Assembly (NCBI GenBank): GCA_016839815.1
Contig: JAEOTM010000134.1
Location: 1-26,722, forward strand
DNA: 26,722 nt
Direction: 5' to 3'
Source: Candidatus Hodarchaeota archaeon
GTDB lineage: Archaea; Asgardarchaeota; Heimdallarchaeia; Hodarchaeales; Hodarchaeaceae
Shown: piece by piece, positions 6,610 through 17,951 of the stretch
Layout: each line of letters opens with the position of its first letter
Numbering within the stretch: the first letter of the stretch is position 1
The notes under the pieces: generated by a model
What the model was told of the DNA's origin: nothing
Databases searched by the model: none
Seen by the model: the letters and a program-made list of their open reading frames with translations, nothing else
Translations under genes and position numbers: made by a program

Positions 6610-7221
6610 TTAACTATTCGCTGCTTTTTCCATCTTCTCCTCAATTCCCTCAATTTCTTCTAAACCAGTTTTTAGAATTTTCTCTAACTCGGAAATCTTG
6701 CTTTGTAAGACAGAAATGGTTTCTTCATTTTCTTTTTGAGCAAGCTCCTGACCACAAACTGTACATAAGAATCCAAATTCAAATGCATCAGAGAATGTAA
6801 CTGGAGTATGTCCTTCTTCACAAACATAAAGTAGGTTTCTCTGTTCATAGTCCAAGCGTTGTTTTAATTTCTTTATAGTTTGTTTTCGACGACTTACAAT
6901 TAAATCTCTTATTCTTTCCCAAATAGGAGACCAATAATATACAAAATATCCTGTTTCTTTATCTCGAACGCGTCGGTATCTTGCGAGGGACCTTTCATTC
7001 AATTTATAAAGTGATTTTCTGACTTCTTTAAGAGCAATCCTTACAATATCTCCCTCATCAGAAGGTTCTGTTTTATCACTTTCTTGCTCTGTATCCTTAT
7101 TCAATATATTAACTATATCCTCATCAATGATCTCGCGTTCCTCTAATAAAATATTCAGGACTTTAACTGTTACTTCATCAGTTAATTTTAAAATAACATC
7201 ATCTAGCTGGGAATAGGACAC
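6610..7221 (-). CDS. tfe: Transcription factor E (TFE/TFIIE-alpha)
   Basis: Winged-helix VRKSLYKL...RDKETGYFVYYW and zinc ribbon CEEGH...AFEFGFLCTVCG; GTG start. Confidence 0.93.
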   Translation of the reverse strand: MSYSQLDDVILKLTDEVTVKVLNILLEEREIIDEDIVNILNKDTEQESDKTEPSDEGDIVRIALKEVRKSLYKLNERSLARYRRVRDKETGYFVYYWSPIWERIRDLIVSRRKQTIKKLKQRLDYEQRNLLYVCEEGHTPVTFSDAFEFGFLCTVCGQELAQKENEETISVLQSKISELEKILKTGLEEIEGIEEKMEKAANS

Positions 7222-7319: not shown

Positions 7320-7793
7320 TTAAAAGTTTTCGAGTTCTTTGAGTGCTGCCATTATTGATTGGGATTCGGGTTTTTTCATTTTAACAGCAGAGGGTTCAGT
7401 CAATCTATCCATAAGTGATGCTAGCGACTCCGATGATTCTTTCATCCGCACACGAATTAACCCCAGTTGAGCATCCGATTCAGCTACTACCACTAATACT
7501 CCTCGTTCTCCACTTTGAGCGGTTAAAATTTTACCATCTGTGAATTCAGCTAGCATAATACCCAACTCCCCAAGAGTTAATGCGCTTCCTTGTTCTGCGG
7601 CTCCGCAAAACACAGCAGAAGCGATGGCTCCAATACTTTCAAGATCAAAGGCCCCCATAGTTTCTGATACTAATAACCTAGAGGCTCTAGCAATCGTTAA
7701 ACCTGTTCTATCACCTAGTAATGTCACTTTAATTGATGTATCACTTTTTAACAGACGAGTTAACTCGCGGTGTATTTCGTCTCTTTGTTGCAT
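7320..7793 (-). CDS. Roadblock/LC7 (MglB/LAMTOR2-like) domain protein
   Basis: Typical pattern LLGDRTGLTIA...SIGAIASAVF...LGELGIMLAEFTDGKIL...VLVVVAESDAQLGLIR; GGTGA SD at 7801-7805. Confidence 0.9.
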   Translation of the reverse strand: MQQRDEIHRELTRLLKSDTSIKVTLLGDRTGLTIARASRLLVSETMGAFDLESIGAIASAVFCGAAEQGSALTLGELGIMLAEFTDGKILTAQSGERGVLVVVAESDAQLGLIRVRMKESSESLASLMDRLTEPSAVKMKKPESQSIMAALKELENF

Positions 7794-7930: not shown

Positions 7931-8650
7931 TTAAAGAATGACTACGACAACCACTAAGGCAATCACAGATCCTGCTAGAAGGGCTAAAAGAGTTCGATTC
8001 TGAGTTAGCTTTCTAGAAATTTTTGTTAGTGTAGATTGAATTTTTTGTAGTTTATTATCGACGTCTGTAATTTTTGTATCAATTTGATCGATTTTAACTC
8101 CCTGCTCGTCAAGTCTCCTAGTCAATGTAGCTAAATTGGCTGAAATATTATTCATTTGAGCATTCATTTGATCCATTGATTCCAAAAATGAATTTTCAAG
8201 CATCTGAAGCCTCTCTTCAAGTGTAACTACATTTTTCGAAGTTATCGCTTCACCCGGATAGGCTAATTCATAAATTCTATTTCCTACTTCTTCACCTTTG
8301 AGAGGACTCGCCTGAAGATCCATAGACTCAATAGATTCACCAATATTCGTCAAAGTGCCACGTAAAGATTTCATTTTAAGCTTTGTTTCACTAAGCTCAT
8401 TTAATTTCTCATTTTGAAGACGAATAATAGGGGGTTGAATGAGTCTAGGTAGATTGGCAATGATTCTGGAAGAAAGAGAGCGTTTATCTATAACTTGTGA
8501 TTTAAAACCTTCAGATATGTCATCAGTCATATTTTCCATTGATTCGAGTACAGAATGTAAATCATTGACAAATCCTTTAATCATTTCTTTTTCTGTTTGC
8601 TCTGCAGGTCTTTTAAACCATTTAGATAACCTCTTTGTCAGTAAGGCCAA
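7931..8650 (-). CDS. Tail-anchored coiled-coil protein with a Q-SNARE-like motif
   Basis: Heptad region aa 159-211 with central LDEQG, a basic linker and a C-terminal TM helix (aa 221-239); no signal peptide. TTG start preceded by a strong AAGGAGG SD. Confidence 0.8.
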   Translation of the reverse strand: MALLTKRLSKWFKRPAEQTEKEMIKGFVNDLHSVLESMENMTDDISEGFKSQVIDKRSLSSRIIANLPRLIQPPIIRLQNEKLNELSETKLKMKSLRGTLTNIGESIESMDLQASPLKGEEVGNRIYELAYPGEAITSKNVVTLEERLQMLENSFLESMDQMNAQMNNISANLATLTRRLDEQGVKIDQIDTKITDVDNKLQKIQSTLTKISRKLTQNRTLLALLAGSVIALVVVVVIL

Positions 8651-9133: not shown

Positions 9134-12100
9134 ATGTCAAAATACGCCTCGATTAAAAAGTTTGCGTTAATTATAACGCTACTCCTACTTGTTATGAATA
9201 ATAACTTCAGTTCTATTACTGGGGATACACATTTGGATAGCAGAAAGGAAGTAAATAAGCTATCTCAAGAGATTACCGAATTAGAACAACAATATAATGA
9301 ACGAATAAATTCAGAAGAAAAAATGTACCTCTTATTCTTCCAAAGAGAGGCTGATTATTCAGGATTCATCACTAAATTTCGAACTGAAATGAATTTTAAT
9401 GGATTGATGGGAACTATTGTAGAAGTAACACCTAATAAGCTCTCTGATATTGTAAAAAAGACATCTGGTCTATCTTTTGATAATGTTCATCCAATTTCAA
9501 ACACAGAGAGAAAAATGGTTCCTTTTTCCTCTTTAGTCTCACCAATAAAGTCCAGTATTCAATCTAAATCATCAGCAAAAGCTATTGGAGTTGATACTTT
9601 ATGGAGGATGGGATACCGAGGACAAGGGGCTACTATCTCAATCTTTGATGAGGGGATAAACGCCAGCCATCCTGACTTTAGTTTCCCAAATGGAACTTCA
9701 CGAATTAAGGCTGCTAAGGGATTCATTAACACTATTTATGGTAATAAAGCAAATTTAACAAATAAAGCAGGGGAACATGGAACTTGGGTTGCAGGTATTG
9801 CAGGAGGAGGTGGCATTAAAACAGCAGATAATCAAGGTATAGCAAATGAATCTTGGTTGCTTGACGCTGATTTGGATGAAGGACCAGAAGATTACTTAGA
9901 TTTTACAATCTTAGGTGAACTCGCAGCAATTAATTGGGCAATAGAAAATGGAGTCGATATAATCAATCGGAGTTATGGGATTTCAGATGGGGAAGACGCA
10001 TATTGGTATATGAGATTGATTCCTGATTATCAAGCACGCGTAGCAGCTATACGTCAAGCTACAAAACTTGGCGTCTTATTTGTACATTCTGCTGGTAATG
10101 AAGGAAGTTCTCCTTACACAATATCAGCGGATAATACTATCCATGAAATTTCTGTTGGCGCTACAGACCAAGGTATGTATAATCTTGCCATGTATAGTAG
10201 CCGTGGACCAATTTGGAGGACGAATGCTTTAGCTCCTGATGTAGTAGCCCCTGGTACCAATGTTCTGACACCTGATGTTAATGGGGGATATGATAGTCCG
10301 CAGGGTACTTCATTTTCTGCTCCACATGTTGCTGGAGTTGCAGCGATCTTAATTGGTGCAATGAGACAGAATGGAATTGATGTAAATCCTGGTACAATTA
10401 AAGCTTCACTAATGGCGACAGCATCAGATCTAGGAGCAGAAATAATCGATCAAGGGACTGGCCAAGTTAATGCTTCAGCAGCTTTTGAAGCATTATTGAA
10501 TGCACCTCGGTCTGGAAATCACGCAATCATTGGTGTCACTAATCCAAAGAATTTGCATTTTACTGATTTTCCCACAGTACTTCAAGGATCAAAGTTTAAA
10601 CGGCCTTTTACATTTGTGTCTTCGGAATTAAATAATGTATCTGTTCAAATCGAAGGGAATTTTTCCTCATTTCTTACAATTAAAGAGCAGATCTGGGTCA
10701 ACAATTCTAATACACTAAGATTAAGTGAAACTGAACTTTCTAATGGCACTCTGAGTGATTATTACTCACATACGCTCACACTACATGTTATTGTTCCTGA
10801 TGATGCTCCGATTGGTTTCTATTCAGGAAATATCAAATTCAGAGTAAATTCTACTGATATTTATTCTGTTCCCTTCCAATTTAACATCGAAACGGCAAAT
10901 AAGAAGATATTATTTGTCACGAAAAATAGAGCCAGTTTTCCCTTTAACACATTAGGGGAATTTCGTGACTTTCAGATTGGTTTAAGCAATCAAGGAATTG
11001 TATTAATTGAGAACAATTCTGCAATTACATCTTCATCACTCGCTGGATATGATTCTATTTGGATAGCTGCTGGTAATAGAACGTATCAGAAGTATCTGTA
11101 TCTTGTGGGATTGGATGATATTGCAAGTTCAGGAGAGGAAACAATAGTTTCAGCTCAAGAACAAAATGCAATAAAATCTTTTGTTTCAAATGGTGGAAGC
11201 TTAATTCTTACACCATTTAGTACCCCTCTAGGAATGGAATCTCTCCTCAATGGATGGGGGATCTCAACACAAGAAATTACACCAAATCTGGGTATAAAAC
11301 CTGCGGAAATCGCCCATTTCAACTCCATAGGAAAGTCTACGCACTATTTTAATCCATCAGGTTCATATTTTTCCATTACCTCTCCTGCAACTCCATTAGC
11401 TTATGTAAATGAACGGGAAAATGTTGTCATGGCATCGTATGATGATCCTGATGGAGGAAGAGTTGTTATAGTTTCAGGAAGTTCATTCATAACCACACGA
11501 GGATACAATAATAGAATAACTGATGCATTTCAATATCAAGATATGTTATTTAATGATCGGTTAGCTACAGATATTTTAGATTGGAGTACCTCATCTCAGC
11601 AATTGTTTGGATCATTCGAACGTATTAATAATGAGATAACTATTTCTCTTCACGCCTCGACCAATTTTAGTCCAGAAGATATGGCTAGCATAAAAGGAAA
11701 ATCCATTAATGTAGCAACAGGTTTGGAATCGAATATTTCTATTCCCCTAAGCGGTACTAATGGATGGTTTAACTTTTCTCTTACATTGTCTGAAGGAGTG
11801 TACATGTTCAATTTTACTTGGGAATCAGAATTCGTCTCATTTGAATTTATTACTGACGAAACTAAACCAAAAATAGGTATTCTGGGTATGGAGAATAATT
11901 CTTATCTGACAGAAAGAACTGATATAACATTCTGGTTCCGTGATGACGAATCGGGAATTAATAGGTATAATTGTCAAATGATGGTTGATGGAAATCCTGT
12001 TGGGTTCAATGGTCCCAAAGTAAACTTGACAGGCACTGGATTTTATATTGAAAAATACCTTATTCCGAGTGATTTTACCTCAGGTACTCATGAAATCAGT

Positions 12101-12286
12101 TTAACAGTTTATGATATTGCAGGGAATTCTGCTGTTATCAGATTTGTATTCATTCGAGGAACTCCTCCTGATTCAGATACTACTAGAGGAAAAGCATCGG
12201 GTTTCTTATTGGGGTCAGTATTGGGAGTGATTTTAACTGCATGGATTATTCAATATAAAAAGAGAACGAAAATTTACAGTAAGTAG
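9134..12286 (+). CDS. Membrane-anchored S8 subtilisin-like serine protease, Site-1-protease-like architecture
   Basis: Signal peptide and prodomain; triad IFDEG / HGTWVAG / GTSFSAPHV, oxyanion SAGN; then an Ig-like region, a class-I-GATase-like alpha/beta domain, further beta-rich domains, and a C-terminal TM plus basic tail. About 20 N-x-S/T sequons. Confidence 0.92.
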   Translation: MSKYASIKKFALIITLLLLVMNNNFSSITGDTHLDSRKEVNKLSQEITELEQQYNERINSEEKMYLLFFQREADYSGFITKFRTEMNFNGLMGTIVEVTPNKLSDIVKKTSGLSFDNVHPISNTERKMVPFSSLVSPIKSSIQSKSSAKAIGVDTLWRMGYRGQGATISIFDEGINASHPDFSFPNGTSRIKAAKGFINTIYGNKANLTNKAGEHGTWVAGIAGGGGIKTADNQGIANESWLLDADLDEGPEDYLDFTILGELAAINWAIENGVDIINRSYGISDGEDAYWYMRLIPDYQARVAAIRQATKLGVLFVHSAGNEGSSPYTISADNTIHEISVGATDQGMYNLAMYSSRGPIWRTNALAPDVVAPGTNVLTPDVNGGYDSPQGTSFSAPHVAGVAAILIGAMRQNGIDVNPGTIKASLMATASDLGAEIIDQGTGQVNASAAFEALLNAPRSGNHAIIGVTNPKNLHFTDFPTVLQGSKFKRPFTFVSSELNNVSVQIEGNFSSFLTIKEQIWVNNSNTLRLSETELSNGTLSDYYSHTLTLHVIVPDDAPIGFYSGNIKFRVNSTDIYSVPFQFNIETANKKILFVTKNRASFPFNTLGEFRDFQIGLSNQGIVLIENNSAITSSSLAGYDSIWIAAGNRTYQKYLYLVGLDDIASSGEETIVSAQEQNAIKSFVSNGGSLILTPFSTPLGMESLLNGWGISTQEITPNLGIKPAEIAHFNSIGKSTHYFNPSGSYFSITSPATPLAYVNERENVVMASYDDPDGGRVVIVSGSSFITTRGYNNRITDAFQYQDMLFNDRLATDILDWSTSSQQLFGSFERINNEITISLHASTNFSPEDMASIKGKSINVATGLESNISIPLSGTNGWFNFSLTLSEGVYMFNFTWESEFVSFEFITDETKPKIGILGMENNSYLTERTDITFWFRDDESGINRYNCQMMVDGNPVGFNGPKVNLTGTGFYIEKYLIPSDFTSGTHEISLTVYDIAGNSAVIRFVFIRGTPPDSDTTRGKASGFLLGSVLGVILTAWIIQYKKRTKIYSK

Positions 12287-12412: not shown

Positions 12413-13687
12413 TCAAGTGACTCTCTTTCCATCATCTACAACAAGTTCTCCTTTCTTATACACTTTTTCCACATGATTTATTCCATAATTATAAGCAAAA
12501 AATCGATGATTTGGAGCATTAAAAATCACAATATCAGCATCTTTCCCAACTTCAATTGAGCCAATTCTATCTTCACGATCAATTGAATGAGCTGCATTTA
12601 TTGTTGCAGCCGTTAAAGCTTCAGCGGCAGTCATTTTCATTCGTAAGACCGCCAGTGTCATCATCATTTGCATTGACTCACATAGGTTAGCGGCACTGAC
12701 ATCAGTAGCAATTGCAACAGGCAATCCACAATCAATGATTTCTCGGGCTTTTGCATAAGTACCGACATAACAAAATGGAGATGTGGGAAGTAGAACTACT
12801 ACTGTGTCATGTCCTCGTAAGGCCTCCACTTCTTCCTTTGGAGTCCAGATTAAATGGTCTACAGAAACAAGATTTCCAATTTCGACAGACAATCGTGTAC
12901 CTCCACTATGTGCTAACCAATCACAATGATTACGAAGTTTCATACCATGCTTTCTTGCCGCTATCAAAATTTTTCGAGTTTGATCCAATGAATAATAGCC
13001 CTTTTCACAAAATACATCTGCATATTCTGCAAGATTTCTTTTCGCTATTTCTGGTATCCACTTTTCTACTATTTCATCAACTAGTGCATCGCTATCATTT
13101 TCAAATTCTGGGGGAATCCCTTGAGCTAAAAATGTAGGGATTAAATCTAAAGGATGATCCTCATTGAGCTTTTTAATTATTTCTAGTTGTTTGATCTCCC
13201 CCTTGAATGACATTTCGTATCCACTTTTTGCCTCAATTGTTGTAGTTCCATGTATAAGCATCTTGTCCAATATTCTGGTAGTTATTTCTATCTGATCTTC
13301 AAAAGAAGTTTCTGAAGTTAATTTAAGAGATTTGTTCATTCCTCCTCCCTGTTCTTTTATTTCCAGATAAGAAACCCCAAGAACTGCCATTTTTTCTAAT
13401 TCATCTTCTCTAGTTCCTGAAAACACTAGATGAACATGCGGATCAATTAATCCAGGAGTAACAAGCTTGTTCCTGGCATCTATAATCTCATAATCTCCAA
13501 TTAATTGTTTTAAGACCTCATTTGTATCTCCAACAGCAACGATCTTATCATTTTTTACTGCAACTGCTCCATTAGATATAATGGCGAGATTATTCATTTG
13601 TTCTTTAGTTCTAGGACTAGTAAATGAACCAGCTAACGTAACTAGCTCATTAGAGTTTATTATAACAAAATCTGCATTTAGAGTCAT
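12413..13687 (-). CDS. hutI: Imidazolonepropionase-like amidohydrolase (divergent active site)
   Basis: PGLIDPHVHLVF, SYLEI..GGG, GTTTIEAKSGY, DVFCEKG, SVDHL, ATD, GSIEVGKDAD motifs; hutH lies nearby. Confidence 0.8.
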   Translation of the reverse strand: MTLNADFVIINSNELVTLAGSFTSPRTKEQMNNLAIISNGAVAVKNDKIVAVGDTNEVLKQLIGDYEIIDARNKLVTPGLIDPHVHLVFSGTREDELEKMAVLGVSYLEIKEQGGGMNKSLKLTSETSFEDQIEITTRILDKMLIHGTTTIEAKSGYEMSFKGEIKQLEIIKKLNEDHPLDLIPTFLAQGIPPEFENDSDALVDEIVEKWIPEIAKRNLAEYADVFCEKGYYSLDQTRKILIAARKHGMKLRNHCDWLAHSGGTRLSVEIGNLVSVDHLIWTPKEEVEALRGHDTVVVLLPTSPFCYVGTYAKAREIIDCGLPVAIATDVSAANLCESMQMMMTLAVLRMKMTAAEALTAATINAAHSIDREDRIGSIEVGKDADIVIFNAPNHRFFAYNYGINHVEKVYKKGELVVDDGKRVT

Positions 13688-13709
13688 CTATAATCCTACT
13701 CTTAATTTG

Positions 13710-15038
13710 TTAAACATCAATATACTTTTCTCTCTCCCATGGATGAACGTATACACAAAACGCTTTCCATTCACGTTTTTTCAATTTAAGGTAACTTTCA
13801 TGAAATTGCTCTCCTAAGGATTCTTGGAGGTGATTATCTCCAGAAAATTCATTAATTGCTTCTCCTAAGGAACCTGGAAGTATCTCAATACCCCTATTCA
13901 TACGCTCCTCTTCCGACATATCATATATGTTCTCCTCCACAGATTTCGGTGGTTCTAATTGTAGATTAATACCATTTAATCCTGCGGAGAATAAACCTGC
14001 ATATGCAAGGTAAAAGTTACAGGATCCATCGGTAGGTCGATATTCCAATCTTGCGGATTTTCTACCCCCTGGAGGTATCCTGATAAGAGTTGATCTATTA
14101 TATTTTGCCCATGAAATGTACACAGGAGCTTCCCAGCCCGGAACAAGTCTTTTATAGGAATTAACAGATGGATTTGTCAACAGGGCGAGAGCTTTTGCGT
14201 GATTTAAAATACCTGCTAGGAATTGTCGAGCTATTGGACTAAGATGAGAATTATCTTCTCTACCAGAAAATAGGTTTTTATCGTTTTCTTCATCTCGGAG
14301 ATTCAAGTGAGTATGTAGTCCTGCCCCATATTCTCCATGTATCGGTTTCGGCATGAAGGATGCTATTAACCCATGTTTATCAGCTATTAACTTGATCATG
14401 AATTTAATTAGATAGATTGTGTCTACCATTTGAAGTGCCTCGGAAAAAGGAATATTGAACTCACTCTTCCCGGCTGGAACTTCGTGATGATGCTTTTCAA
14501 TTATTATTCCAATTTCTCTGAGCATTTCAGTTATTTCTAATCTAAGCTTGGTTCCTCTATCAGCAGGAGGAGAGGCAAGATAACCTGCTTTATCAATTAA
14601 TTCAACTTCCCCCTTATCTTTTTTGTTAAATAAGAAGAATTCGATTTCACTAGATGCAATTCCGCTTACAGATTGTCCTAATTGCTCCTTCATCGATTTT
14701 AATGACTTCTTTAGAATATAGCGTGGATCTAAAAGGAATGGGGAGTCTGAATCTGGTTCATATATATCACAGACAACTCTGGCAATGTTATAATCGAATA
14801 AATTAGAAGGTAATAGCACAAAACTGTTTATATCTGGTAATAATTTCACATCACTTTTACTAACATCGACTACTCCCAGAGAAGACCCATCAGTATGAAC
14901 TCCATCTTCTACCGCTTTAGAAAATTCCTGAGAGGGGATCCATAGTGTGTGTAAGATTCCTGACAAGTCAGTAAATTGTAACGCGATTTCTTTAACTTCT
15001 TTGTTAGAAATAATCTCTAAAATTTTGTTGACATTCAT
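13710..15038 (-). CDS. glnA: Glutamine synthetase family protein (type I)
   Basis: QFTDLSG, DGSS, EIEFFL, HHEV, FMPKP, NSYKRLVPGWEAP, NRS..IRIP, RLEYR. Confidence 0.9.
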   Translation of the reverse strand: MNVNKILEIISNKEVKEIALQFTDLSGILHTLWIPSQEFSKAVEDGVHTDGSSLGVVDVSKSDVKLLPDINSFVLLPSNLFDYNIARVVCDIYEPDSDSPFLLDPRYILKKSLKSMKEQLGQSVSGIASSEIEFFLFNKKDKGEVELIDKAGYLASPPADRGTKLRLEITEMLREIGIIIEKHHHEVPAGKSEFNIPFSEALQMVDTIYLIKFMIKLIADKHGLIASFMPKPIHGEYGAGLHTHLNLRDEENDKNLFSGREDNSHLSPIARQFLAGILNHAKALALLTNPSVNSYKRLVPGWEAPVYISWAKYNRSTLIRIPPGGRKSARLEYRPTDGSCNFYLAYAGLFSAGLNGINLQLEPPKSVEENIYDMSEEERMNRGIEILPGSLGEAINEFSGDNHLQESLGEQFHESYLKLKKREWKAFCVYVHPWEREKYIDV

Positions 15039-15119
15039 TTAAACGACCTTAAAATCTGTTTTTTTACGAATAGATAAATTTGATTGTCATTTACAGGTTT
15101 TATGGCTAGTAATACCTCA

Positions 15120-15136
15120 TTCCAAAGATTTTGGAA
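15120..15136. promoter_or_regulatory. Perfect inverted repeat TTCCAAA-N3-TTTGGAA, candidate operator
   Basis: Lies in the divergent intergenic region between glnA-hutI and the M20 gene. Confidence 0.35.
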
Positions 15137-15270
15137 AGACTGGGTTTTAGGAGACTGTCCTCTTCATATCTTTTTAAAATTAAGGTTGTGTTCATTCTAA
15201 TGCGGAAAATGACATTAAGTTTCTGTTTTTTACTGTTGACTGCAATATGGATTACGCTCGTGGTTCAAGG

Positions 15271-16464
15271 ATGAAAAAAAACATGCAGATTGAAGAATTA
15301 AAAGAAATAATCTTAAACGATGCAAAAAAGTTAGAATCTGACATTATTCGAATCCGTCGTCACATTCATATGCATCCAGAGACACTTTATGAAGAAGAAA
15401 ATACAGCTAAATTTATAGAGGATGAATTAACTAGAATTGGTATTGAATCCCACCGAATCGCTGGAACAGGTATTCTCGCAACGATTAAAGGAAGTAAAAA
15501 GGGTAAAATTGTAGCTCTGCGAGCTGATATTGACGCTCTTAATGTAAAGGAGGAAGCTCAAGTCTCTTATAAGAGCCTGGTTGATGGAAAAATGCATGCT
15601 TGTGGGCATGATGCACATACTTCCATGCTTTTAGGTGCTGCGAAAATTATCACGAAATATCAAAATCAACTGCTAGGGGAAGTAAAACTGATATTTCAAC
15701 CTGCAGAAGAAGGAGGTGGTGGAGCTAAGAAAATTATCACTGAAGGACACTTTAAAAATATCAATTGGGTTTTTGGCATTCATGTATGGGCTCCCTTGCC
15801 TTCTGGGACTATTGGAATCCGAAAAGGGCCAATATTTGCTTCATCCGACCGATTTCATATTACAATCTCTGGGAAGGGAGGGCACGCTGCAGCTCCACAT
15901 CAAACCATTGATCCAACTAGTGTATCAGTAGATATCTACAATGCCCTACAGAAAATCGTATCGCGTGAAGTAGATCCATTTGAACCTTGTGTACTATCAG
16001 TTCCTGTATTCGAAGCAAGCAAAGCCCATAATGTGATTCCAACTTCAACTAGGATACGAGGCACGTTGAGAACATTTAATCCTGAAGTTAGATCTTTCAT
16101 TAGGAGTCGGATAGAGGAGGTTGTAAAAGGTTACAGTTCTGCTTGGAGATGTAGTTCTAATGTGGAATTCGATCCTATGTCTTATCCTCCTGTGATTAAT
16201 GACGAAAAGACGGTAGATACACTTTTTGAAATTCTACAGGATGTAAGTGATATACAAATCATGGATCAGACAATGGTTGGGGAAGATTTTTCATTCTACC
16301 TACAGGAAACTAAAGGTGTATTTTTAACATTGGGGATTCGAAATGAAGCAAAGGGGATTATCTTTCCTCACCATCATCCAAAATTTCAAGTAGATGAAGA
16401 TATCCTATGGAAAGGAACAGCAATCTACACTCTTTTAGGATTCATTAATTCCTTTTTGATTTAG
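15271..16464 (+). CDS. M20D-family amidohydrolase (aminoacylase/carboxypeptidase-like)
   Basis: RRHIHMHPE, LRADIDAL, MHACGHD, FQPAEEG, GKGGHAA, GEDF, HHHPKF. The ORF opens at 15247; 15271 or 15283 are more likely starts. Confidence 0.92.
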   Translation: MKKNMQIEELKEIILNDAKKLESDIIRIRRHIHMHPETLYEEENTAKFIEDELTRIGIESHRIAGTGILATIKGSKKGKIVALRADIDALNVKEEAQVSYKSLVDGKMHACGHDAHTSMLLGAAKIITKYQNQLLGEVKLIFQPAEEGGGGAKKIITEGHFKNINWVFGIHVWAPLPSGTIGIRKGPIFASSDRFHITISGKGGHAAAPHQTIDPTSVSVDIYNALQKIVSREVDPFEPCVLSVPVFEASKAHNVIPTSTRIRGTLRTFNPEVRSFIRSRIEEVVKGYSSAWRCSSNVEFDPMSYPPVINDEKTVDTLFEILQDVSDIQIMDQTMVGEDFSFYLQETKGVFLTLGIRNEAKGIIFPHHHPKFQVDEDILWKGTAIYTLLGFINSFLI

Positions 16465-17951
16465 AAACTATGATTTTGAATCAACGCAGTACATTTCTCA
16501 ATATCAGGTGATAACTCCCGATCTTTATCTAAGAAGGAAATCGATTCACGAATTTTAGTAAAAATTTCTTTATTCTTAGGAGATATGTCTTCATGGATTT
16601 CCGCCATGTCTATCGCTTGTGCAACGCATAATAATTCAATAGCGAAAATATTTTGCAAATTATTGATGATCTGACGTAGCTTGTTCGCTGAGTTCATTCC
16701 CATACTTACATGATCTTCTTGATTTGCAGAAACTGGAATATTATCTACAGCTGCTGGTGTAGCAAGCTGTTTATTTTCAGATACCAATGCTGCTGCGGTA
16801 TACTGCGCAATCATAAATCCAGAATTCAATCCACTTCCAGACGATAGAAAAGGAGGTAATTTACTCAAAGATGGGTTCAATAGACGCTCGATTCGTCGTT
16901 CAGCAATTGTTCCTAATTCAGTAAGTGCAATGGCAAGAAAATCCAGAATCAATGCTATCGGTTCCCCATGAAAATTCCCGCCACTTAATACAGTTTCAGT
17001 TGAGAATATCAGAGGATTATCTGTAGATGAATTCATTTCAATTTCAATTATTTTTTTAGCATGTTCTAAAGTATCATATACCGCTCCATGTACTACGGGA
17101 GCGCATCTGAGTGAATAACTATCTTGATGTCCAATTAATTGTTTAATTCTCTTACTTCCCTCAAGATGCTTATGAATCGATTCTGCAGAACGAATTTGTC
17201 CAGTATGAGGACGAGCTTGGTGAATTAGTGGGTGTAAACTATCGATATTTCCTTGGTGAACTTCCATACTCAAAGCTGTACAAATATTTGCAATTTTCAC
17301 TAGATATAACGACTCAATAGTAGACAATGCTGCGATGGAGGTCATTGCTTGTGTTCCATTTAATAACGCAAGTCCCTCCTTTGCAACCAGCTTAAGTGGT
17401 TTTAATCCAATTTCACTTAAAGCTTCAAGACCGCTCATTTGTCGATTACTAAAACTAGCTGATCCTCTTCCTAATAATACTAGCGATAAATGAGCTAAAG
17501 GGGCTAAATCTCCACTAGCACCAAGACTTCCTTTTGAAGGAACATTAGGAGTAATACCATGATTTAAAAACTTAATAAGATATTCTATTACTTCTGATCG
17601 AATACCAGAATAGCCTTTAGCAAATTTATTTATTTGTAATGCCATTATCCCTCGTACTATTTCCTTTGAAAAATTGGGTCCAATTCCTGCGGCATGACTT
17701 TTTATTAAATTCTCTTGTAATATCCCTACATCACTTAAAGAAATATTAACCTCCTGTAAATACCCAAAACCAGTAGTAATTCCGTAAATTCTTTTATTAC
17801 TATTTAATATTTCTTGAACAATGTTAGCAGAATGTTCAATCCTATTTTGGGAGCTTAAAGTCAATTCAACATTTGAATTACATTGCGTTATTGATTTGAA
17901 ATTATCTAGTGTGAGGTTATCACCATTAAGAGCAAAAGAGTCTTCGTGCAT
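16461..17951 (-). CDS. hutH: Histidine ammonia-lyase
   Basis: YGITTGFG, His-specific SHAAG, MIO-forming GASGDLAPL, KEGLALLNGT, QDSYSLRC, GGNFHG, SANQEDHVSMG. Confidence 0.96.
   Translation of the reverse strand: MHEDSFALNGDNLTLDNFKSITQCNSNVELTLSSQNRIEHSANIVQEILNSNKRIYGITTGFGYLQEVNISLSDVGILQENLIKSHAAGIGPNFSKEIVRGIMALQINKFAKGYSGIRSEVIEYLIKFLNHGITPNVPSKGSLGASGDLAPLAHLSLVLLGRGSASFSNRQMSGLEALSEIGLKPLKLVAKEGLALLNGTQAMTSIAALSTIESLYLVKIANICTALSMEVHQGNIDSLHPLIHQARPHTGQIRSAESIHKHLEGSKRIKQLIGHQDSYSLRCAPVVHGAVYDTLEHAKKIIEIEMNSSTDNPLIFSTETVLSGGNFHGEPIALILDFLAIALTELGTIAERRIERLLNPSLSKLPPFLSSGSGLNSGFMIAQYTAAALVSENKQLATPAAVDNIPVSANQEDHVSMGMNSANKLRQIINNLQNIFAIELLCVAQAIDMAEIHEDISPKNKEIFTKIRESISFLDKDRELSPDIEKCTALIQNHSF

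Follow-up and report, generated by a model that had tools for sequence, protein, structure and literature searches.

A Probable Surface Subtilase of Hodarchaeales with the Domain Order of Eukaryotic Site-1 Protease

Locus and Domain Layout

The DNA analyzed here (the window) covers positions 1 to 26,722 of contig JAEOTM010000134.1 in the Candidatus Hodarchaeota archaeon assembly GCA_016839815.1. A single open reading frame (ORF) of 1050 codons fills positions 9134 to 12286 of the forward strand and encodes a 1050-amino-acid (aa) protein of the subtilisin (peptidase S8) family. Its catalytic domain is followed by a beta-sandwich and a GATase1-like domain of the GIFT type, in the order seen in the eukaryotic Golgi site-1 protease (S1P, also MBTPS1). 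The same build occurs throughout the Asgard archaea. S1P and this family have probably both inherited the fused three-domain core from an ancestor of Asgard type, with the present copy appearing as a side branch. The features of the gene are as follows.

9134..9223, + strand: predicted signal peptide or signal anchor, aa 1-30; basic start, then a hydrophobic stretch (Kyte-Doolittle peak aa 3-28); AlphaFold2 (AF2) helix aa 3-22; kept in orthologues
9224..9574, + strand: prodomain region, aa 31-147; one helix followed by an I9-like beta-alpha-beta-beta-alpha-beta-beta unit, aa 61-132 (AF2)
9509..9520, + strand: RKMV, aa 126-129, candidate autoprocessing site of the R-x-hydrophobic-hydrophobic type; R-x-[ML]-[VI] in 9 of 14 orthologues; AF2 strand aa 127-130
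9575..10504, + strand: Peptidase S8 catalytic domain, aa 148-457 (Pfam PF00082), with invariant catalytic residues
9647-9649, 9776-9778, 10097-10099, and 10310-10312, + strand: codons of the catalytic residues D172, H215, the oxyanion N322, and S393, respectively
10505..10897, + strand: beta-sandwich, aa 458-588, at the place of the S1P "P-like" subdomain; AF2 predicted local distance difference test (pLDDT) 86-97
10898..11599, + strand: GIFT (GATase1-like) alpha/beta domain, aa 589-822, from fold and family-profile matches
11600..12169, + strand: two further Ig-like beta-sandwich domains, aa 823-1012; AF2 strands at aa 822-1008; weak Big_13, DUF4625, and FlgE_D2 matches
12170..12286, + strand: Thr/Ser-rich linker, SGF motif, hydrophobic helix, and basic tail, aa 1013-1050, with the stop codon; Heimdall-CTERM-like candidate sorting or anchor signal

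A Pfam scan of the whole protein returned Peptidase_S8 as the sole significant match. Only two hydrophobic segments are present (aa 3-28 and aa 1020-1041, Kyte-Doolittle). The full-length AF2 model has a pLDDT of 63.7 and shows an N-terminal helix, a prodomain, an S8 fold, a beta-sandwich, an alpha/beta domain, two further beta-sandwiches, and a terminal helix. A second AF2 model, covering aa 458-830 and built on 66 family sequences, has a pLDDT of 89.6 and a predicted template modeling score of 0.87. Full-length relatives of nearly equal length, with 36-75% identity, are present in metagenome-assembled genomes of Candidatus Hodarchaeales. An earlier sequence-only reading of this DNA had described a signal peptide, prodomain, S8 domain, Ig-like region, GATase-like domain, C-terminal hydrophobic helix, and basic tail within 1050 aa, and all of these were found.

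Comparison with S1P by Fold

S1P is composed of prodomains A and B, an S8 domain (187-478), a "P-like" beta-sandwich (479-616), a GIFT domain (617-998), a transmembrane helix, and a short tail (PMC11231238). The Hodarchaeales protein follows the same order, from signal peptide through prodomain, S8 domain, beta-sandwich, and GIFT domain to a C-terminal hydrophobic helix that may act as a membrane anchor, and S1P is likewise about 1050 aa long (PDB 8UW8, 8UWC, and 9CSD; PMC11231238). The two differ in that the S1P GIFT domain carries long inserts, while the 1050-aa protein has two additional Ig-like domains (aa 823-1012).

When the full model was compared with the PDB using Foldseek, S1P chains were the top matches. 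Chain 9csd_A matched with an E value of 8.1e-27 over 791 columns, which takes in the entire 744-residue chain, and Tk-SP of Thermococcus kodakarensis was next at 3.6e-19. VIA-align placed 496 residues of the full model on S1P (model 151-900, S1P 196-882) with a Z of 23.1, while other subtilase chains gave Z values of 21-22 with 220-345 residues aligned. The Z values are nearly tied, and it is therefore the aligned length that sets S1P apart. S1P is the only PDB chain that aligns over the S8, P-like, and GIFT domains together, and it is the best PDB match across these three core domains.

For the two-domain model (aa 458-830), Foldseek again placed S1P first (E 3e-12, 455 columns) and IFT52 next (1.8e-10). 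VIA-align superposed residues 6-366 of this model on S1P 478-875 as one rigid body, with a Z of 17.4, 298 residues, and a root-mean-square deviation of 3.7 A. In this search, made independently of Foldseek, S1P came third by Z, after IFT52 and OST48, and was the only match to align across both domains.

Tk-SP and other pyrolysin-type archaeal subtilases (PDB 3AFG and 9UES) also come close. Like the 1050-aa protein, Tk-SP has a propeptide of the I9 type and, following its catalytic domain, a beta-sandwich, the latter a feature of many subtilases, including kexin and fervidolysin. Tk-SP lacks the GIFT domain and the further Ig-like domains of the 1050-aa protein, and it has no membrane anchor.

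Comparison with S1P by Sequence

Two profiles were used for sequence comparison, a family profile of 66-68 Asgard sequences and a narrow profile of 14 Hodarchaeales sequences. With the 68-member family profile, hhalign matched aa 541-792 to metazoan S1P 557-857 at 98.6% probability and an E value of 1e-15. This alignment begins inside the beta-sandwich (aa 541 opposite S1P 557) and continues through the GIFT domain. In hmmsearch, the family hidden Markov model (HMM) matched eight metazoan S1Ps at 1e-9 to 1e-12, while 23 of 25 S8 proteins assigned to the non-GIFT class gave no match. The reverse search, with an HMM of the metazoan S1P C-terminal part, matched five family members with full-sequence E values of 2.9e-8 to 6.7e-4. 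Significance beyond the S8 domain was reached only with the family profile. A single-sequence phmmer search of aa 455-1050 against PDB sequences returned only chance-level matches to AdoMet decarboxylase (E 0.14). No hhalign match was found between the last two Ig-like domains (aa 823-1012) and the C-terminal part of S1P.

The sequence-only reading had paired short motifs of the two proteins by eye. Within the S8 domain, the pairs LWRMGY/LWQMGY, FDEG/FDTG, HGTWVAG/HGTFVAG, and VNPGTIKASL/VNPASMKQAL were all aligned by the profile-profile comparison. The pairs outside it (KKILF/KRILW, EFRDF/NFRDM, NGGSLIL/NGLSLIV, ESLLNGW/NELLSVW, and ENVVMASY..GGRVV/ENVPILGLY..GGRIV) are aligned in the hhalign match to S1P 557-857 given above.

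Language-model features of aa 150-830 were also compared with clusters of the ESM Atlas. Nine eukaryotic S1P clusters lead the named clusters (0.95, 197 of 256 features), followed by a Thorarchaeota S8 plus DUF4350 cluster at 0.89 and bacterial S8 clusters at 0.83-0.84. Since fold, profile, and language-model features agree, the claimed collinearity with S1P outside the catalytic domain is confirmed.

Catalytic Domain and Prodomain

Pfam PF00082 (Peptidase_S8) matches aa 163-443 with an E value of 3.9e-40 and 138.4 bits, against a gathering cut-off of 21.8. D172, H215, N322, and S393 are invariant across 14 orthologues, with the Asp-His-Ser order and the oxyanion Asn kept. They align with S1P D218, H249, N338, and S414 in hhalign, which matches the S8 domain to that of S1P at 99.8% probability with 31% identity over 277 columns. 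Because the catalytic residues are invariant, the protein is apparently an active subtilisin-type protease.

The prodomain is modeled with a pLDDT of 80-88 over aa 61-120. VIA-align matched model residues 59-456 to chains of pro-Tk-subtilisin and ProN-Tk-SP, propeptides included. No significant hhalign profile match was found between the prodomain and that of S1P.

S1P cuts after R-x-hydrophobic-x (PMC11231238), and both proteins carry an R-x-hydrophobic motif at the end of the prodomain. The RKMV that the sequence-only reading placed opposite the S1P autocleavage site RKVF is present, and 9 of the 14 orthologues have R-x-[ML]-[VI] at this position, so that the prodomain is likely cut after RKMV129. 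Taken alone, a four-residue likeness to the S1P site is weak evidence. An acidic loop, DADLDEGPEDYLD (aa 244-256), is aligned by hhalign with the S1P stretch holding Q282, although the alignment is of low confidence here. Q282 is part of the S1P pocket for the P4 Arg (PMC11231238). One protein with a long, S1P-like N-terminal part (P0117) was considered as a bridge to S1P and rejected; its best match is still Tk-SP, and S1P ranks 17th.

The GIFT Domain

The nearest folds to aa 589-822 alone are the GIFT domains of IFT52, OST48, and GldG (PDB 5FMS, 5FMR, and 6S7O chain G; Pfam PF23355 and PF09822). The VIA-align search with the two-domain model gave a Z of 20.8 for IFT52 (199 residues), 18.1 for OST48, and 17.4 for S1P. 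By sequence, the best PDB match of the family profile is also IFT52 (3.2e-12), with S1P at 2.3e-8. None of IFT52, OST48, and GldG is a protease, and the S8 domain and beta-sandwich that come before the GIFT domain in the 1050-aa protein are missing from them.

Pfam scans of 66 family members matched ABC_transp_aux in 20, IFT52_GIFT in 19, DUF4350 in 10, and MBTPS1_4th in 5. Six members scanned whole gave weak matches to all four of these GIFT-type models, with MBTPS1_4th covering only about 70 residues. The 1050-aa protein alone has a weak DUF4350 match (E 0.057). Both a GATase1-like alpha/beta fold and sequence matches to GIFT families are thus present in the Asgard family, and the domain is generic, fitting IFT52 at least as well as S1P.

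The ESM Atlas also contains a Thorarchaeota cluster of stand-alone 393-aa proteins, all with IFT52_GIFT. A literature search returned no paper tying Asgard archaea to IFT52 or GIFT domains.

Distribution and Paralogues

Profile searches identified about 60 representatives of approximately 1000 aa with the same build. All homologues of this build that bear a source name belong to Asgard archaea (Heimdall, Hod, Thor, Odin, or Njord). Of the 301 Asgard genomes searched, 299 have matches to the beta-sandwich plus GIFT model, usually several, with up to six or more in one genome. Outside Asgard, the profile gave one weak match, in Chloroflexi (P0098, E 8e-4).

The source genome has three genes with S8, beta-sandwich, and GIFT domains, on contigs C100, C66 (1251 aa), and C17 (910 aa). 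In the C17 paralogue, the match to the S8 model is confined to the second half of that model. A further ORF of 2134 aa, on contig C33 from approximately 46645 (+ strand), contains two to three GIFT-like modules and has no S8 match. The S1P-like build is therefore pan-Asgard and multi-copy, and not special to this gene.

By shape, the beta-sandwich plus GATase1-like module extends to bacteria. Shape matches in the ESM Atlas (template modeling score about 0.55-0.60) show it fused to hydrolases, including M28 peptidases (Chloroflexota), M6 peptidases (Zixiibacteriota), GH88 hydrolases (Bacteroidota), and S8 plus type IX secretion system (T9SS) proteins (Calditrichota). It may be an accessory that secreted hydrolases commonly carry.

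C-Terminus and Probable Surface Location

The orthologues end alike, with a linker rich in Thr and Ser, then a (P/S/T)G(F/Y) motif, about 20 hydrophobic residues, and a terminus rich in K and R. This pattern, with its Thr-rich linker, (P/S)GF, hydrophobic stretch, and basic end, is that of Heimdall-CTERM and PGF-CTERM proteins (NF045529 and TIGR04126). Against the NCBIfam Heimdall-CTERM model (NF045529, cut-off 24 bits), the orthologue tails fall below the cut-off, at 19.3 bits (P0006), 17 bits (P0007), and 12.6 bits (another orthologue), and the SGF tail of the 1050-aa protein has no match.

About 25 other ORFs in the source genome end in PGF, about 20 hydrophobic residues, and an RRRR/KKRK-type basic end, often after Thr-rich runs. 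The genome also has a 257-aa archaeosortase-family ORF (contig C6, approximately 43802-44122, + strand) that matches TIGR04178 at 40.5 bits, against a cut-off of 23. A Pfam Exosortase_EpsH search of the source genome gave no match, and this model also missed a Haloferax control. As judged from these tails, the organism has a sizeable Heimdall-CTERM/PGF-CTERM-like surface proteome.

Because of the tail pattern in the orthologues, the similar ORFs, and the archaeosortase-family ORF, the tail is most simply read as an Asgard surface-sorting signal. The sequence-only reading had listed a C-terminal transmembrane helix and basic tail. The helix and tail are present, and they look more like a Heimdall-CTERM sorting signal than like the type I anchor of S1P. 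Most likely the segment is an Asgard C-terminal sorting signal, perhaps cleaved by an archaeosortase, with only a general likeness to the S1P anchor.

Three longer family members, of about 1250-1300 aa (P0187, P0198, and P0225), have a zinc-ribbon at the extreme C-terminus, and the tail in these is therefore a real cytoplasmic domain and not a sorting signal. The cluster of P0198 includes a member named Odinarchaeia.

The 1050-aa protein has 20 N-X-S/T sequons, against 13.5 expected from composition, and one Cys. Identity among the Hodarchaeales contigs is 37-55% for the protease, 73-99% for the neighboring roadblock protein, and 64-90% for the neighboring TFE. The protease diverges much faster than its neighbors, which suits an exposed surface protein, and it is probably located at the cell surface.

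Genomic Context

The genes upstream are divergent (- strand) and encode a SNARE-like tail-anchored protein (7931-8650), a roadblock/LC7 protein (7320-7793), and TFE (TFE-alpha, 6610-7221). Downstream, on the strand opposite to the protease and spanning 12413-17951, are genes for a HutI-like amidohydrolase, a glutamine synthetase, an M20 peptidase, and an aromatic amino-acid (histidine) ammonia-lyase. These histidine-utilization-type genes are syntenic in Hodarchaeales, and in one contig (L015) urocanase lies beyond them. The whole 15-kb gene order is kept in three Hodarchaeales contigs (L014, L015, and L016). None of these neighboring genes was found beside six S8-GIFT loci of other Asgard families. 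Because adjacency is kept only within Hodarchaeales, it reflects synteny at the level of gene order and does not speak for a common function. Functional coupling of the protease with the SNARE-like and roadblock genes was accordingly rejected.

Genes for M50 peptidases, the family of the site-2 protease that acts after S1P, were found in the source genome, as the sequence-only reading had proposed to look for. They are equally present in all 14 control genomes, so that their presence is uninformative about an S1P-like cascade. No candidate substrate was found for the protease.

Interpretation and Alternative Explanations

We consider the protein to be an active, surface-held subtilase zymogen of a pan-Asgard family with the build of the S1P head, whose fused core is probably shared with S1P through Asgard-type descent and of which the Hodarchaeales copy is a side branch. 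We give this reading a probability of roughly 0.6. Observed directly at the locus and in the family are the ORF, its intact set of catalytic residues, the folds, the homology detected by profiles, and the distribution. From these we infer export, the site of autoprocessing, how the protein is anchored, its substrates, and its descent.

Under this reading, the N-terminal signal would direct export by the Sec pathway. The I9-like prodomain would then fold, inhibit the protease, and be removed autocatalytically, probably after R-K-M-V129. The beta-sandwich and GIFT domains would pack against the catalytic domain as in S1P, whose GIFT domain supports loops of the oxyanion hole (residues 338-348 and 372-384), and the two extra Ig-like domains together with the Thr-rich, probably glycosylated linker would form a stalk. 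The (P/S)GF-hydrophobic-basic signal would tether the enzyme to the membrane, whether it stays in place as a helix or is first processed in the manner of archaeosortase substrates. A likely task is the cutting of surface or external proteins and peptides outside the cell.

Several results weigh against shared descent with S1P. In the ranking of PDB sequences for the S8 domain, Tk-SP (3afg) and Vpr (8jmw) are best, with Tk-SP at E 2.1e-41 with the family profile, and S1P is fifth at E 1.3e-32; the S8 domain alone is thus closer to Tk-SP and Vpr than to S1P. Conversely, the S8 profile of S1P scores non-GIFT S8 proteins at a median of 92 bits and the family at 83.5 bits. The proteins so favored come from other archaea and bacteria, including Pyrobaculum and Archaeoglobaceae. 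S1P is represented in the trees by metazoan sequences only (the S1P search gave its best 120 matches, and all named ones are metazoan), and its stem is very long throughout, at 1.5-2.1 changes per site. In the S8-only tree of 97 rows, S1P falls among the non-GIFT proteins on a stem of 1.79 changes per site, with Shimodaira-Hasegawa-like approximate likelihood ratio test values of 87 and 93. The 55-row S8-only tree has S1P at the border, beside a long Asgard branch with zero support. The concatenated tree of the S8 and beta-sandwich/GIFT regions places S1P on the family side with a support of 88, outside a clade of 23 members (97*) that contains the 1050-aa protein. This tree leans to the family by design, because the outgroups have no GIFT columns. 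The Hodarchaeales copy accordingly appears in the trees as a side branch and not as the nearest relative of S1P. Outside the S8 domain, the 1050-aa protein has no match at E values up to 1 to the Pfam models of the other S1P regions (MBTP1_N PF23001, MBTPS1_3rd PF23094, and MBTPS1_4th PF23090), and the 14-sequence Hodarchaeales profile reaches S1P in the S8 domain only, with hhalign E values of 0.05-0.1 for the C-terminal part. The likeness of the GIFT domain to IFT52 equals or exceeds that to S1P, so that S1P could have acquired its own separately, and the bacterial S8 plus T9SS cluster has a similar module by shape.

These results fit a separate joining of the S8, beta-sandwich, and GIFT domains in Asgard archaea, in eukaryotes, and perhaps in bacteria, in which case the present protein would be a common type of secreted subtilase from archaea, not specially related to S1P. 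The raw material for such convergence would be a pyrolysin-type S8 protease with a C-terminal beta-sandwich and a mobile GIFT/GATase1-like module, and both are at hand: the post-catalytic beta-sandwich is common in subtilases (Tk-SP, kexin, and fervidolysin), the GIFT domain fits IFT52, GldG-type ABC_transp_aux, and DUF4350 as well as it fits S1P, and the combined module is found on bacterial M28, M6, GH88, and S8 enzymes. The sequence-only reading had itself named branching with generic subtilases, away from S1P, and a broad scatter of the S8 plus GATase-like architecture in prokaryotes as results that would count against it. These results were obtained in part: the S8 domain scores best against the Tk-SP type, the S8-only trees do not join S1P to the family, and the module is also carried by bacterial enzymes, but the affinity to S1P beyond the S8 domain stands. 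Against convergence are the domain order, the spacing, and the two-domain rigid-body packing, which match an S1P cryo-electron microscopy structure absent from the AF2 training set, together with the collinear profile alignment that runs from the beta-sandwich through the GIFT domain. By language-model features, no named family is nearer than the S1P clusters, which lead every bacterial S8 cluster, and the host lineage is thought to be the closest to eukaryotes. We therefore hold separate assembly to be unlikely, though a serious contender, and descent of S1P from the Asgard family to be plausible.

A closer correspondence would make the protein a true counterpart of S1P, the first protease of a regulated intramembrane proteolysis that cuts tethered regulators at R-x-hydrophobic-x before an M50 protease acts, possibly tied to the neighboring SNARE-like and roadblock genes. 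The S1P-like head, the R-x-[ML]-[VI] at the end of the prodomain in 9 of 14 orthologues, the acidic loop aligned to the Q282 region, the M50 genes, and the divergent SNARE-like and roadblock neighbors all fit this. The M50 genes are, however, in 14 of 14 control genomes, the neighborhood is a Hodarchaeales-only 15-kb syntenic block missing at six other Asgard loci, and no candidate substrate was found. The three paralogues here, and the six or more matches in some Asgard genomes, suit a general protease family. S1P acts with a SPRING partner, in the Golgi, on SREBP/ATF6-type substrates, a setting with no equivalent for the Hodarchaeales protein. An S1P-like signaling role is improbable. Least probable of all, to the point of being hardly credible, is the reading that nothing but the subtilase shape is left and that the protein is a non-catalytic accessory of the cell surface or of a transporter. 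GldG-type ATP-binding cassette (ABC) accessory proteins do have GIFT domains, but D172, H215, N322, and S393 are invariant in 14 of 14 orthologues, and no ABC transporter genes adjoin the protease gene.

Descent and Significance

S1P is a gatekeeper of eukaryotic sterol, endoplasmic reticulum stress, and lysosomal-enzyme signaling, and a structural description of its unusual non-catalytic domains dates only from 2024. A literature search returned no paper connecting S1P/MBTPS1, SREBP, or this subtilisin family with Asgard archaea. What is new is that an archaeal protein combines an S1P-type build with additional Ig-like domains and a probable Asgard sorting tail; its build gives a hint that S1P may have its root in archaea. 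The value of the single gene is lower, as one of three paralogues that is not the nearest relative of S1P.

A tentative proposal, somewhat less probable than not, is that S1P arose from an already fused pan-Asgard S8/P-like/GIFT membrane protease, and that the Asgard GIFT domain may also be the source of the GIFT domains of IFT52 and OST48. If so, the Golgi enzyme that starts SREBP/ATF6-type proteolysis would be an inheritance from the cell surface of the archaeal host, turned inward with the endomembrane system. A near-universal Asgard family with an S1P-type head would place a protease of the secretory pathway among the features that eukaryotes may have inherited from archaea, and it would offer an archaeal model for the role of the P-like and GIFT domains in a subtilase.

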